In this document: piece after piece, positions 3,324 through 59,814 of the stretch
How the letters are laid out: the number at the start of each line of letters is the position of its first letter
Numbering within the stretch: the stretch's first letter is position 1
Assembly (NCBI GenBank): GCA_003576755.1
Contig: QEVT01000006.1
Coordinates: forward strand, 1 to 60,945
Source: a bacterium
Lineage (GTDB): Bacteria; Chloroflexota; Anaerolineae; Epilineales; Epilineaceae
Length of the DNA: 60,945 nt
Direction: 5' to 3'
Program-made: the position numbers and the translations under genes
The notes under the pieces: generated by a model
Database searches by the model: none
Told to the model about the DNA's origin: nothing
The model's input: only the letters and a program-made list of their open reading frames with translations

Positions 3324-4124
3324 TCACACGTCGAGCGCGCCGAGGTCGGCCGCGACCGCGGCGATGACCCCGCTGCCTTCGGGCTGCAGGAAGAAGTGCC
3401 CGCCGGTGAAGACACGCACATCGAAGGCGCCGGTCGTCTGGTCTGCCCAGGCCTCGAGGTCCGTGCGGCCGACCTCGCGGTCGTCGCGGCCGCCGAACGC
3501 CGCGATGGGCGCCCTGAGCGGCGGCTCGGGGGCATAGCGGTAGCTCGCCATCACCGCGACATCGGCGCGCAGGATGGGAAGGAACAGCGCGAGCAGCTCG
3601 GGGTCGGCCAATATGGCCTCGGGGATGCCGTCGTACCGCCTGCGCAGCTCGGCCACCAGCTCGGCATCGGGGAGCCGGTGCAGCGGCGGAAAGCGTTCCG
3701 GGAGGTGCGGGGCACGCCGGGCCGCCACCGCGAGATAGGCCGGCTCGATCCCATGGCCACGGCGCAGCGCACGCGCCAGCTCGAAGCCGATCAACGCGCC
3801 CAGGCTGTAGCCGAAGATCGCCAGCGGCTTGTCGAGCAGCGGCGCACAGGCCGCGGTCAGACCGGCCACCAGCGGATCCAACCGTACGGCCGCCGGTTCG
3901 CGAAACCGGCCTTCGCGTCCCGGGAGCTGCGCCAGGCGGACCTCGATCGTGGCCGGCATGGCGCGCGGCCACGCGCGATAGACCGACGCGCCAACGCCGG
4001 CATACGGGATGCAGAGCAGCCGCATCGCCGCGGCCGGCCGCGGTGCCGGGCACGTGAGCCAGGCGCCCGCGGCGACGGCCGGGGCGCTCTGCGCTTTCGG
4101 GGCGGCAGAGTCGGTCGCGGTCAT
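3324..4124 (-). CDS. Type II (editing) thioesterase, last gene of the cluster
   Basis: ATG 4124 overlaps the GT stop (ATGA at 4121-4124). Motifs include LLCIPYAGVGASVY, the nucleophile elbow GYSLGA and the C-terminal GGHFFL. Only the last 266 aa of ORF 3324..5216 are considered real. Confidence 0.88.
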   Translation of the reverse strand: MTATDSAAPKAQSAPAVAAGAWLTCPAPRPAAAMRLLCIPYAGVGASVYRAWPRAMPATIEVRLAQLPGREGRFREPAAVRLDPLVAGLTAACAPLLDKPLAIFGYSLGALIGFELARALRRGHGIEPAYLAVAARRAPHLPERFPPLHRLPDAELVAELRRRYDGIPEAILADPELLALFLPILRADVAVMASYRYAPEPPLRAPIAAFGGRDDREVGRTDLEAWADQTTGAFDVRVFTGGHFFLQPEGSGVIAAVAADLGALDV

Positions 4125-5398
4125 GGGGGTGTCCTGATCCCGGATCGTGGTGCATCGGGCCGAGCCTGCACCGCCGCCGCCTCGCACAACGCCGCGAGCT
4201 GCCCGGCGCTGACGCGCCACACCCAATGCCTTTCGGCATAGCGCCGCCCTGCGGTCGCCAACGCGGCGCGGCGTTCCGGCGCGTTCAGCAGGTCGACCAC
4301 CGCGGCGGCGAACGCTCCGGGGTCGGCCTCGGACGTCACCACCGGCGGCGGGTCGTGGTCCTCGATCCGCAATCCCTCCGCCACCACGGGCGTCGTCACC
4401 ACCGGCAGCCCCATCGCCATGGCTTCCTGGACCTTGTTCTGCAGGCCCGAGGCGTAGCGCAGCGGCGCGACGAACACCGTCGCGGCGGTCAGGTGCGGCC
4501 GCAGGTCGTCGACGAACCCCGTCACCATCACCGTCGGATCTCCCGCCGCACGCGCCACGAGATCCGGTGTGGGATCGCGTCCCGCAATGCAGACCTCGAC
4601 GTCCGAGGTCATGTCGCGGATGCGCGGCAGGATCGCGCCGACCAGCAACCGGGCGGCATCGTCGTTTGGGGCGTAGCTCATCACCCCGCTCAGCACCAGC
4701 CGCCGCGGGTGGGGCGCGATGCCCGGCGCCCGCCGCCAGTACGCGAGGTCGACCCCGTTCGGGATGACCGCCGTGACGTCCGCCGGCCCGGCTCCGACCC
4801 CCGGGCCGAGGATCGCGGCGCGATCGCGGGCGGAGATGAACGACAAGTACGGTGTCGCGGCGACCGCGCGCCGCTCCATCCGCCGCACCGCGACCCGCTG
4901 GAGCGCGAGGAGCATGCGCTTGCGCCAGCCGACGCAGCCCATCCGCATCCCGATGCGCAGCGAGCCCGCGTCGCAGAAGTCGAGCACCAACGGCACCCGC
5001 CCTCGGCCCGCGACGACGCCGAGCAGGTTCTTGCCGTGGAGGAGGACGACGTCGTGCGCGCCGGCGTCGGCGATGGCTGCGTCGAACGCCCGGCGCATCG
5101 CGCGCGTCGCAGCGCCGAAGCGCGCGATGCGCGCCGACCTGCGTCCCAGGCTTGTCGGCTTGCCCTCGGTCGGATCGTTGGATGGCGCCGACGTCCGGCC
5201 GACGGGCACCGGCCACGTCGCCATGCGTTCGGTGTACCCTTCGATCTCGGCCATCACGTCGGGCGGGACGGGCTGGTCGGTCAACGTGAGCAGCGTGATC
5301 GCGTGATCGTGCGCCAGCTCGCGCAGGAAGTGGTAATGCCGGTTCGGCCCGCGGAGGCGCGGGTGCTGCAGCATGAACGTGACGTAGAGGATGCGCAT
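4121..5398 (-). CDS. GT-B fold (group 1 / GT4-like) glycosyltransferase
   Basis: 425 aa. The N-terminus reads MRILYVTFMLQHPRLRGPNRHYHFLRELAHDHAITLLTL. The C-terminal donor-binding segment reads YASGLQNKVQEAMAMGLPVVTT. The ATG at 5398 directly abuts the upstream stop (5399-5401). Confidence 0.85.
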   Translation of the reverse strand: MRILYVTFMLQHPRLRGPNRHYHFLRELAHDHAITLLTLTDQPVPPDVMAEIEGYTERMATWPVPVGRTSAPSNDPTEGKPTSLGRRSARIARFGAATRAMRRAFDAAIADAGAHDVVLLHGKNLLGVVAGRGRVPLVLDFCDAGSLRIGMRMGCVGWRKRMLLALQRVAVRRMERRAVAATPYLSFISARDRAAILGPGVGAGPADVTAVIPNGVDLAYWRRAPGIAPHPRRLVLSGVMSYAPNDDAARLLVGAILPRIRDMTSDVEVCIAGRDPTPDLVARAAGDPTVMVTGFVDDLRPHLTAATVFVAPLRYASGLQNKVQEAMAMGLPVVTTPVVAEGLRIEDHDPPPVVTSEADPGAFAAAVVDLLNAPERRAALATAGRRYAERHWVWRVSAGQLAALCEAAAVQARPDAPRSGIRTPP

Positions 5399-6310
5399 TC
5401 AGCCCACGCCAGGCGAATCGCGTTCAGGAGCGGCGCGACTGCCCTCGAAGCGGGCCATCCACGCCGAGCAGGCGTCGACGAGCCGCGCCTGGGACGTCAG
5501 GCGCGTGAACACGTGATCGGCCCCCTCGACCACCTCGACGGCAAACCGGCCCGTGGCCAACCAGCGCGGCAGGTCCGCACCGCTCCGCACGTGCAGGAAG
5601 TCCAGGCCGACATCGGCTTCGCTGAAGACCATCAGAACCTCGAAGCCACGGTCGAGAAGGGTGTCCAGCACCGGCGCCCCCCCGCCGCGATCGGCCACCG
5701 CGGGCGCCGCCGGGTGCACCCGCCGTGCGCGCCGCGTCTGATATGCCGCCTTCCAGCGTTCGAGGTCCGGCGCGATGCGGCTCGGTCGAAGCGCGCCGCG
5801 CGGGTTCAGCACGATCACCTTCCAGTAGTGTCGGAAGAGCTTGCGGGTGTACGCCCGCGCCGTGGTCCACCGGTCATGCTGGGGGCCGCGGACGTTGATC
5901 AGCACGGTCCCGACCACCCGCGCATCATCCAGTCCGGCGCGGAGGGCCGTCGCGGCGCCCGAGCAGAGGCCCAGGAGCACGAAGCGTCGCAGCCCACGAA
6001 CGGCGCCGAGGAATGCCATGGCCTCGCGGGTCTCTGCCACCACGCTCTGCCGAAAGGGCGCATGGTCCTCCCGGACGGCGCTGTCGCCAATGCCCGAGAA
6101 GTCGAAGCGCAGGACGGTGAAGCCCTCCGCGGCCAGGCGCCGGGCAAGCTTGACGTGGAGGCGGTTGGGGCCCACATGGTGAATCCGCCCGGCATCGAGG
6201 ATGATGACGGCTGGCCGGTCGGCCGCCGCCGGGACGGGATCGGGCTCGGCGAGGACGCCCACGAGCGCGGCGTGGTGCCCGAACAGCACGGCGGTCTCGA
6301 TCATGGGCAC
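5399..6310 (-). CDS. Alpha/beta-hydrolase fold protein with a cysteine at the nucleophile elbow (G-L-C-S-G)
   Basis: 303 aa. It contains FTVLRFDFSGIGDS and the elbow LLGLCSGAATAL, with the Cys codon at 5963-5965. A C-terminal EGADHVF is a His candidate for the triad. The second Met (6304) forms an ATGA overlap with the upstream stop, so the start is 6310 or 6304. Confidence 0.8.
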   Translation of the reverse strand: MPMIETAVLFGHHAALVGVLAEPDPVPAAADRPAVIILDAGRIHHVGPNRLHVKLARRLAAEGFTVLRFDFSGIGDSAVREDHAPFRQSVVAETREAMAFLGAVRGLRRFVLLGLCSGAATALRAGLDDARVVGTVLINVRGPQHDRWTTARAYTRKLFRHYWKVIVLNPRGALRPSRIAPDLERWKAAYQTRRARRVHPAAPAVADRGGGAPVLDTLLDRGFEVLMVFSEADVGLDFLHVRSGADLPRWLATGRFAVEVVEGADHVFTRLTSQARLVDACSAWMARFEGSRAAPERDSPGVG

Positions 6311-7172
6311 TGCTCGACCAACCAGGCCGTGATCGCCTTCAGCACGGCGTGCGGGACGAGCACCTTGTTGATGTCCTCGATCCAGATCGATGGGGTGTCG
6401 ATCGACACGACGTCGACGCGCGACCCGAGCTCCGTCAGGTGGCCGCGCAGCCGTCCGAGATCCGTGGGCACGCCCGTATCCACGACGAAGACCCGCGGGC
6501 CGGGTGGGGCGGGAAGCGCCAACAGGTCGAGTGCGGCCAGATCGGACCGGAGCGCCGCGGGCAGTCCGAAGCCGAGCACCTCCGCCACCGGCTCACCGGC
6601 CGGCGGCGCTTTCACCGGCACCGGGAACGACCGCATGCGCGCCCGATGCCGGGCCGCCAGGTCGTCCAGGTAGACCGCGCCGTCGACCACCGGGTCCCAC
6701 AGGACAAGGCCGTCGACGCCGCCGCCGTCGACCGCGGCCTGGGCTGCCAGCGATGCCCCCAGACGCAGACCGACCAGCGCGACGGATGCCACCCCGCTGC
6801 GGGCACGGAGCACGTCCATCGCGCTCACCGCATCCTCGCGCCAGCGCTCCAACCGACCATCGCTGTCGCCGCCGGCGGCGTCGCCGGTGCCGTACCAGTC
6901 AAACCGCAGGCAATGGAACCCGGCACGGACCAGTTGGCCGGCCAGTTGTTTGAGGGCGCGGTGGGCGCGAATCGACTCCTGGCCGACCGGCCCGCAGATC
7001 ACGATCCCGGTGCGTCGCCCTGGGTGCATCGGCGGCCGGTGGTGGCAGCCGAACAGCGCCCCGCCCGGTGTCCCGAAGAACAGCGGCACGCACTCGGGCT
7101 CTGCGCCGCCACCCGTCCCGGGGCGGGCGACGAGGGCTGGGCGCACGAACGGGGCCGGGCGGGGCGGGTCGA

Positions 7173-7176
<4 letters not shown>
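6301..7176 (-). CDS. Alpha/beta-hydrolase fold paralogue lacking a nucleophile (G-L-R-L-G)
   Basis: GTG 7176 overlaps the NRPS stop (GTGA at 7173-7176). It contains FHCLRFDWYGTGDA and the elbow VALVGLRLGASLA. The Arg codon at 6763-6765 sits where Ser or Cys is expected. It aligns with the downstream hydrolase across the core. Confidence 0.75.
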
Positions 7177-19011
<11,835 letters not shown>

Positions 19012-59482: not shown

Positions 59483-59814
59483 GGATGATCGAAGCAATCG
59501 AATGGACCTGAAAAGCGAATCGCCAATCGTCAACGATCGAATACCCCGGCACCGCACCGCCGCTGTCGTTGCCTGTCGGCCGTCCGACGCGGCGGATCCC
59601 CCATACGGGATCCTCCCGCCGGAGCGATGGTGCCACCGGGACGCGATGTGGACCGGTCTGGTGCCGGGCATGGGGTAAGACGAATGACGGAGGATGGGAG
59701 ATATGGCCCCGGCGCACCCTCGCGCCTCGCTGTGGATTCCCCCGAATTAATAAAATCCCGCGTCGATCGTATTTAAGGCGTGCACACCTGACCTTTCCCC
59801 CGGGGGAGCCGAAC
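59483..59814. promoter_or_regulatory. Divergent intergenic region between the PKS operon and the ECF sigma gene; presumed promoters and operators
   Basis: GC content is visibly lower than in the flanks. It contains an AT-rich island GAATTAATAAAAT (59744-59756), which includes TAAAAT (59751-59756) and the palindrome ATTAAT. An inverted repeat GGATT-N15-AATCC spans 59734-59758. A GGGGGAG Shine-Dalgarno at 59802-59808 precedes the sigma ATG. No transcription start evidence is available. Confidence 0.4.

Follow-up and report, generated by a model that had tools for sequence, protein, structure and literature searches.

Here, we describe two adjoining genes, which we call hydA and hydB, that follow the last module of a polyketide synthase/non-ribosomal peptide synthetase (PKS/NRPS) assembly line in a bacterium of the Epilineaceae (Chloroflexota; Anaerolineae). 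The window, by which we mean the whole stretch of 60,945 nucleotides that was analysed (contig QEVT01000006.1 of assembly GCA_003576755.1), has a G+C content of about 75 % and is nearly filled by a single operon, which starts at 59671 and ends at 3324 on the minus strand. After the last peptidyl carrier protein (PCP) domain come four small, tightly coupled genes: hydA, hydB, a glycosyltransferase gene and a PF00975 thioesterase gene. We propose, with a probability that we put at about one half and from comparison of related loci, that the products of hydA and hydB make up one two-subunit off-loading enzyme acting in trans, which would hold the finished chain as an acyl-S-Cys intermediate and pass it on, perhaps to a sugar acceptor.

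Anatomy and conserved residues of the hydrolase pair

The pair and the synthetase gene before it are arranged as follows.

7173-10637, minus strand: last assembly-line gene, C-A-PCP, with Condensation, AMP-binding and PP-binding Pfam matches
6301-7176, minus strand: hydA, alpha/beta-hydrolase paralogue of 291 amino acids, Arg138 in a GLRLG elbow
5399-6304, minus strand: hydB, alpha/beta-hydrolase of 301 amino acids, Cys114 in a GLCSG elbow

Both hydrolase genes overlap the gene before them. The GTG at 7174-7176 that opens hydA overlaps the stop of the NRPS gene (TGA, 7173-7175) as GTGA, and the hydA stop (TGA, 6301-6303) overlaps the ATG of hydB (6302-6304) as ATGA. The elbow codons are CGT at 6763-6765 for Arg138 of hydA and TGC at 5963-5965 for Cys114 of hydB. 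His264 of hydB (5513-5515) lies within a GADHVF motif, Asp231 of hydB is encoded at 5612-5614, and Cys61 of hydA at 6994-6996. A preliminary description of this DNA had reported the GTGA and ATGA coupling, the two elbow codons and the GADHVF His, all of which can be read from the minus strand; the extent of 5399-6310 that it gave for hydB relies on an upstream GTG and is replaced here by the ATGA-coupled start at 6304, which independent gene calls use. The start position of hydA is not certain: an alternative GTG lies at 7089, one public gene call begins about 29 codons downstream and yields 262 amino acids, and the first 28 residues of the longer version are poorly modelled and resemble a Pro/Ala linker. 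The notion that hydA is a frameshift artefact of a PCP-hydA fusion is rejected, because four independent assemblies share the same gene structure.

Arg138 and Cys114 occupy equivalent places in the two proteins. Aligned by phmmer to the solved hydrolase 9pic, Arg138 falls on the nucleophile Ser of GFSLGG, and Cys114 falls likewise on the nucleophile Ser of GLSMGG in the solved hydrolase 9pjb. When the two families are compared profile to profile (98.8 %, E 7e-17, 137 columns), Cys114 and Arg138 share a column, which shows that hydA and hydB are homologous, at least over their N-terminal half. The earlier placement of the Cys and the Arg at the nucleophile elbow, which a different alignment could have undone, is thus borne out by both methods.

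These residues are kept across the family. Cys114 and His264 are each present in 119 of 120 hydB homologues, and Arg138 is retained in three hydA sequence sets (119/120, 120/121 and 142/146). In a distant clade in which the two proteins are fused, Cys114, Asp231 and His264 of the hydB part are each found in 120-121 of 121 sequences (Asp231 in 120/121), making Cys114-His264-Asp231 the best candidate triad and Asp231 the probable acid residue. While hydB thus carries the canonical set of nucleophile, His and acid, hydA does not, having Arg138 at the elbow and, among 120 homologues, no conserved His at the canonical site (near positions 260-276). The hydA part of the fused clade is conserved elsewhere, with Cys61 in 117/121, His72 in 115/121, Arg73 in 119/121 and Arg138 in 120/121. 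Judged from these sequence sets, the elbow residues are family features, beyond chance, and hydA is without a canonical nucleophile yet strongly constrained around its pocket. Where the preliminary description had paired a catalytic subunit with a pseudo-enzyme, we therefore retain the pairing, but the label “pseudo-enzyme” may be too strong for a protein in which Cys61, His72, Arg73 and Arg138 are near-invariant.

Confident models made with AlphaFold2 (AF2) give both proteins the canonical alpha/beta-hydrolase topology (pLDDT 90.8 for hydA and 84.4 for hydB). In Foldseek searches of the PDB with the two models, the top matches are generic esterases of the Hydrolase_4 type, lipases and feruloyl esterases, from which no function can be read; the trans-acting thioesterase DcsB stands lower among the matches. 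PhaC, dienelactone hydrolase (DLH) and NcmC are not among the PDB matches listed by either the sequence or the Foldseek searches.

Pairing, carrier association and family placement

To place the pair, one genome per species was scanned, and the 80 loci retrieved were annotated with hidden Markov models of the hydrolases and of the window's domains. The loci come from Chloroflexota, Acidobacteriota, Gemmatimonadota, Planctomycetota, Myxococcota, Pseudomonadota and others, the closest relatives being Chloroflexota with 52-58 % identity. HydA immediately precedes hydB in every one of the 80, the two genes being a median of 9 bp apart. Of the 69 loci whose sequence extends far enough upstream, 66 have a carrier domain within 1.5 kb before hydA (median gap 86.5 bp); 44 of these end in an NRPS module and 21 in a PKS module. 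In at least 10 of the 80, hydA is in frame with the terminal carrier (...PCP-hydA), in the position of a thioesterase (TE) domain; a hydA-hydB fusion does not occur in this set.

Such fusions do occur more widely. A hydA-profile search of 1.84 billion representative proteins yields 5,223 clusters (50 % identity, E up to 1e-30), and the best 145 of these comprise 109 stand-alone hydA proteins, 17 carrier-hydA fusions and 19 hydA-hydB fusions. A tblastn search against plasmids finds a 611-amino-acid Azospirillum brasilense protein that consists of hydA (GLRLG) followed by hydB (GLCAG ... GADH). Searching with this protein gives 513 matches; 119 of the best 120 begin with hydA at the N-terminus and end with hydB. 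Fusions are widespread, occurring in Azospirillum (for example WP_237907600.1), Paraburkholderia, Reyranella and Mycetohabitans. The fused gene is the last of a conserved cassette in Azospirillum, Paraburkholderia and Mycetohabitans rhizoxinica (pBRH01), which runs acyl carrier protein (ACP), acyl-CoA-dehydrogenase-like protein, amino acid--[ACP] ligase, DUF1839 protein, GH2-like protein and fusion, at the following loci.

L086, 5348-12993: fusion cassette, (acyltransferase)-ACP first
L089, 10001-18119: fusion cassette, (acyltransferase)-ACP first
L092, 6415-15815: fusion cassette, (acyltransferase)-ACP first

The pair is found in cultured strains as well: as the separate genes INQ48_42270 and INQ48_42275 in Variovorax paradoxus VAI-C, and as the fused genes H1Q64_RS27565 in Azospirillum brasilense and RBRH_RS20740 in Mycetohabitans rhizoxinica HKI 454.

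The fixed gene order and the frequent fusions suggest that hydA and hydB work as one unit, and the constant company of a carrier protein and an adenylating enzyme suggests that their substrate is a carrier-bound thioester. Two further claims of the preliminary description gain support here: that the two proteins act together (adjacency in 80/80, with the same order in 119/120 fusions), and that they replace a release domain (neither a TE nor an R domain in cis at our locus, a carrier upstream in 66/69, carrier fusions in at least 10/80 and 17/145). The chain ends served are chemically diverse, comprising Gly-terminated peptides, the unassigned amino acid of our locus, reduced polyketides, and simple A-PCP or aminoacyl-ACP cassettes. 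The last A domain bears a glycine code in about 19 of 31 NRPS-ended loci analysed; the code at our own locus is unassigned.

A number of loci depart from the simple layout. Two of them (L061 and L062, 14114-17487) have, within a few kb of the first, another hydA-hydB cassette that follows a minimal A-PCP, and the 1184-amino-acid protein P0361 is a tandem (hydA-hydB)x2. An additional C-PCP-hydB without hydA is found in L071 (10954-13449). In L048 (13-9216), L050, L053, L061, L062 and L073, a C-A-PCP module with a luciferase-like monooxygenase inserted in the A domain, followed by KS-AT-KR-DH-ACP, precedes the pair; this monooxygenase-in-A architecture is of the Gemmatimonas type and recurs in many metagenome-assembled genomes of Gemmatimonadota. 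Finally, L026 and L067 consist of a minimal A-domain enzyme, a carrier, hydA and hydB, the layout closest to the exosortase-A cassette of ligase, ACP and two hydrolases. The A-domain enzyme of these two loci lacks the Asp235 of amino-acid-activating domains and is thus probably acyl-activating.

As to known families, the best NCBIfam match of hydA is TIGR03101 (94.5 bits, E 7e-27, profile positions 3-246 of 266) and that of hydB is TIGR03100 (94.7 bits, E 6e-27, profile positions 10-273 of 274). These scores are about half of the curated cut-offs (202.75 bits for TIGR03101 and 168.45 for TIGR03100), which neither protein reaches. Ten further hydA homologues, some of them named “exosortase A-associated hydrolase 2” by JGI, also remain below the cut-off at 83-127 bits. 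The glycosyltransferase encoded next to hydB has as its best family TIGR03087, of the PEP-CTERM/exosortase A (XrtA) system (stp1), again below the cut-off (186 bits over the full length against 316.65). Hence three consecutive genes of the window resemble three XrtA-system families with scores that all fall short, which makes them a related (sister) clade and not family members. The resemblance to TIGR03100 and TIGR03101, named in the preliminary description, is in this way confirmed as a resemblance only, not as membership.

TIGR03101 and TIGR03100 are the exosortase A system-associated hydrolases 2 and 1, respectively, two uncharacterised families that, going by the family descriptions, likewise form an alpha/beta-hydrolase pair accompanied by an adenylating enzyme and a carrier protein. 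The arrangement in the window is alike in that hydA and hydB adjoin each other and lie next to an AMP-forming ligase and a carrier (C-A-PCP), and in the XrtA-type glycosyltransferase beside hydB. It differs in that the partner is a 56-kb PKS/NRPS line and not a single ligase with an ACP. No exosortase or PEP-CTERM gene lies within the 61-kb window, the flanks of which hold RecR/YbaB/TrmB genes and an extracytoplasmic-function (ECF) sigma factor.

Among other alpha/beta-hydrolase families, both proteins pass the gathering threshold of PF12146 Hydrolase_4 (27 bits; hydA 31.7, hydB 34.4), neither matches PF00975 Thioesterase at E up to 1, and hydB stays under the gathering threshold of PF01738 DLH (15.2 bits, E 0.016, threshold 21). 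They share the alpha/beta-hydrolase fold with PF00975 type I and type II TEs and with fungal hydrolases of the DcsB/LovG type and, like TE domains, come directly behind the terminal carrier, to which hydA is joined in some lines. Unlike TE domains, they are two subunits, the nucleophile is a Cys in place of the Ser, and the carrier-proximal hydA has an Arg elbow and no catalytic His. In its GxCxG elbow with His and Asp, hydB is like the TEs of ObiF, SulM and sorangibactin, NcmC, dienelactone hydrolase and PhaC; a specific relationship of hydA or hydB to Cys-nucleophile catalysts (ObiF, NcmC, DLH, PhaC) is not detectable in sequence or fold. A catalytic Cys subunit that requires a second subunit is already known from PhaC/PhaE, the class III polyhydroxyalkanoate (PHA) synthase, although hydA, unlike PhaE, is itself an alpha/beta-hydrolase paralogue.

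The operon and its glycan-related neighbours

The remaining features of the window are the following.

10634-59671, minus strand: assembly line upstream of the last NRPS gene, with seven PKS modules, several with C-methyltransferase (Pfam)
4121-5398, minus strand: GT-B (GT4-type) glycosyltransferase, Pfam Glyco_trans_1_4, its ATG abutting the hydB stop
3324-4124, minus strand: type II thioesterase of 266 amino acids with a GYSLG nucleophile and a GGHFF His, PF00975 149.6 bits
59569-60357, plus strand: ECF-type sigma-factor-like open reading frame, divergent from the first PKS gene (start 59671)

By Pfam, the first six modules of the line are KS-AT-DH-KR-ACP, KS-AT-DH-cMT-ER-KR-ACP, KS-AT-cMT-ACP, KS-AT-DH-cMT-ER-KR-ACP, KS-AT-cMT-KR-ACP and KS-AT-DH-ER-KR-ACP. 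Genes 7 and 8 are the hybrid KS-(no AT hit)-KR-ACP-sulfotransferase-C-A-PCP and the final C-A-PCP (7173-10637), whose terminal PCP domain lies at about 7215-7403. The penultimate residue of the line is Gly, as read from the A-domain code of the hybrid gene. The terminal A domain, aligned to GrsA, has the specificity code DPRHCAFQAK, which matches no familiar code, so that its substrate is unassigned; L001, L002, L013 and L038 have a nearly identical one, DPRHFGFQAK. None of the eight megasynthase genes of this 56-kb line contains a TE or R domain in Pfam scans. The preliminary description, in which the hydrolase pair replaces a release domain, agrees with this as far as cis domains in the megasynthases are concerned; it had overlooked the discrete type II TE at 3324-4124. 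This gene, whose start overlaps the glycosyltransferase stop (ATGA), is the last of the operon, and a homologue is present in only 6 of the 80 related loci, all of them closest relatives.

The hybrid gene (10634-18871, minus strand) has two peculiarities of its own. Its KS module is without an AT match, all other PKS modules in the window having one, and its sulfotransferase (ST; PF13469, amino acids 1337-1558) lies in line and is followed by a condensation domain, in the order ST-C-A(Gly)-PCP, unlike the ST-TE of CurM-type terminal-alkene formation. The ST-C arrangement is also seen in L002 and L063. The ECF-sigma-like open reading frame is likely a cluster-situated regulator and sets the upper boundary of the operon; TrmB, RecR and YbaB genes flank it below 3300.

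Glycan-related genes recur beside the pair. The same glycosyltransferase gene lies 3' of hydB in the closest relatives L001 and L002, and other loci have TIGR03088-like glycosyltransferases, a TIGR03108-like amidotransferase or a priming sugar transferase. Downstream sequence of 3 kb or more is available for 64 metagenomic loci, and in 29 of them it includes one or more genes of the exopolysaccharide (EPS) type. The genes of Variovorax paradoxus VAI-C run NRPS, NRPS, phosphopantetheinyl transferase, hydA, hydB, Wza, Wzc, sugar transferase, GDP-fucose synthase, glycosyltransferases and flippase. In Paraburkholderia, the neighbours of the fused gene are a flippase, a GT2 and a WecA-type transferase, and in Cupriavidus they are Wza, Wzc and a priming transferase.

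Carrier-based acylation of glycoconjugates is well known: DltABCD makes D-alanyl teichoic acids, AlmEFG glycyl lipid A, and BtrI/BtrH transfers an acyl group to an aminoglycoside. In these systems, as at our loci, an adenylating enzyme loads a carrier, and there a dedicated transferase then delivers the residue to a sugar-containing acceptor. Further points of likeness are the frequency of glycan genes around hydA and hydB and the predominance of Gly as the last residue before the pair. The transferases themselves are unrelated to hydA and hydB (MBOAT/DltD, LpxL-like and papain-like, respectively), and the likeness is one of working principle only.

How the chain may be released

In light of the position and conservation of the pair, what might its role be? 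HydA, in the place of a thioesterase domain, would dock the terminal PCP and help to form or gate the pocket. Cys114 of hydB, together with His264 and probably Asp231, would then take the chain as an acyl-S-Cys intermediate, a thioester acyl-enzyme being what a GxCxG elbow with His and Asp leads one to expect. An incoming nucleophile would resolve this intermediate, and a sugar- or glycan-type acceptor linked to the XrtA-type glycosyltransferase seems likelier than water. We infer transacylation rather than hydrolysis from the Cys nucleophile and the glycan-gene neighbourhoods, and we favour a sugar-type acceptor because the two-subunit design, too, is elaborate. The logic would resemble that of Dlt, Alm and BtrH, in which a carrier-bound acyl group goes to a glycoconjugate, with a different catalyst.

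Several observations weigh against this proposal. The association with glycan genes is partial (45 %) and set against no genomic background, and is thus suggestive only. In the stand-alone clade the acid position of hydB is less conserved, with Asp231 in 70 %. The structural neighbours found by Foldseek are ordinary esterases and lipases, so that the fold does not favour transfer over hydrolysis. A canonical type II thioesterase that could release the chain is encoded in the same operon. Finally, a full-text literature search found no paper on either hydrolase family or on the pair.

The alternative that fares best, although we consider it unlikely, is plain hydrolysis: the pair would be a split Cys-dependent thioesterase that frees a lipopeptide acid, and the glycosyltransferase would then decorate the free product. 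The evidence from position and conservation serves this explanation as well as it serves transfer, the nearest folds (esterases, lipases and the trans-acting thioesterase DcsB) fit it, and 35 of the 64 loci have no glycan gene within 10 kb. Set against it are the recurrence of the pair in polysaccharide loci and beside XrtA-type glycosyltransferases, and the over-elaborate character of a Cys enzyme with a conserved second subunit for a task that Ser thioesterases manage alone.

Within the proposed transfer, a more speculative elaboration, to which we give a small chance, is that Cys61, His72, Arg73 and Arg138 of hydA form a second, non-canonical active site. Cys61 lies beside the elbow, where strand beta3 ends, and the chain might pass along a thioester relay from carrier-S to Cys61, to Cys114 of hydB and on to the acceptor. 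If so, this would be a new mode of chain termination that couples PKS/NRPS lines or ligase-plus-ACP cassettes to the acylation of exopolysaccharide or glycolipid, and the product would be a glycan-bound lipopeptide and not a free metabolite. It would also explain what the XrtA-associated hydrolase 1/2 cassette does.

Improbable, in our view, is that the type II TE (3324-4124) releases the chain while hydA and hydB edit, deacylate or remodel a glycoconjugate or tailor the product. The TE has the GxSxG and His of a canonical PF00975 enzyme and is encoded, with translational coupling, in the operon of the pair, and a lone TIGR03100-like hydrolase, with a function that has been guessed, is known from a Burkholderia EPS cluster with no reported carrier protein (PMC3584217). 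Against this, the TE is absent from 74 of the 80 related loci while the hydrolase pair is always present, a rarity that argues against its being the general release enzyme, and the fusions of hydA to terminal carriers are hard to explain if the pair never touches a carrier. Type II TEs, moreover, usually proofread mis-primed carriers.

Equally improbable is that hydB is a cyclase or condensing enzyme, forming a lactone, a lactam or a Dieckmann product as in ObiF, SulM and NcmC, or oligomerising its substrate like PhaC/PhaE. Enzymes of the alpha/beta fold with a Cys nucleophile are over-represented in ring-forming and oligomerising release, and the two-subunit layout recalls the class III PhaC/PhaE. 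Yet PhaC, DLH and NcmC are missing from the listed PDB matches, the Pfam DLH match is sub-threshold, and the diversity of chain ends across loci makes a single ring-forming chemistry unlikely. Cys thioesterases have been described as rare, in a study of an in-line Cys thioesterase domain that does not belong to the hydA/hydB families (PMC10127202). Dieckmann (tetramate) release in particular is rejected, the last two modules being both NRPS, the chain ends varying across loci and no similarity to NcmC being found.

Both Cys thioesterases and alpha/beta-hydrolases that release chains in trans have precedents, but we know of no other obligatory paralogue pair with an invariant Arg elbow. The pair in the window is an ordinary member of a very large, unstudied family, and it is in the family, which the preliminary description had in essence read correctly, that the interest lies. 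Whether a PKS/NRPS line yields an acid, a ring, an amide or a conjugate is decided at its release step, and the phyla that carry the pair (Chloroflexota, Acidobacteriota, Gemmatimonadota, Planctomycetota, Myxococcota and Pseudomonadota) account for a large part of the biosynthetic potential of soil that is still unexplored. If transfer by hydA and hydB is true, product prediction from clusters that bear the pair would need revision, and the exosortase-A-associated hydrolase 1 and 2 families and the aminoacyl-ACP ligase cassettes would gain a testable function. In turn, with sugars or polysaccharides as acceptors, the output of many “orphan” clusters would be modifications of the cell surface or matrix and not diffusible metabolites.

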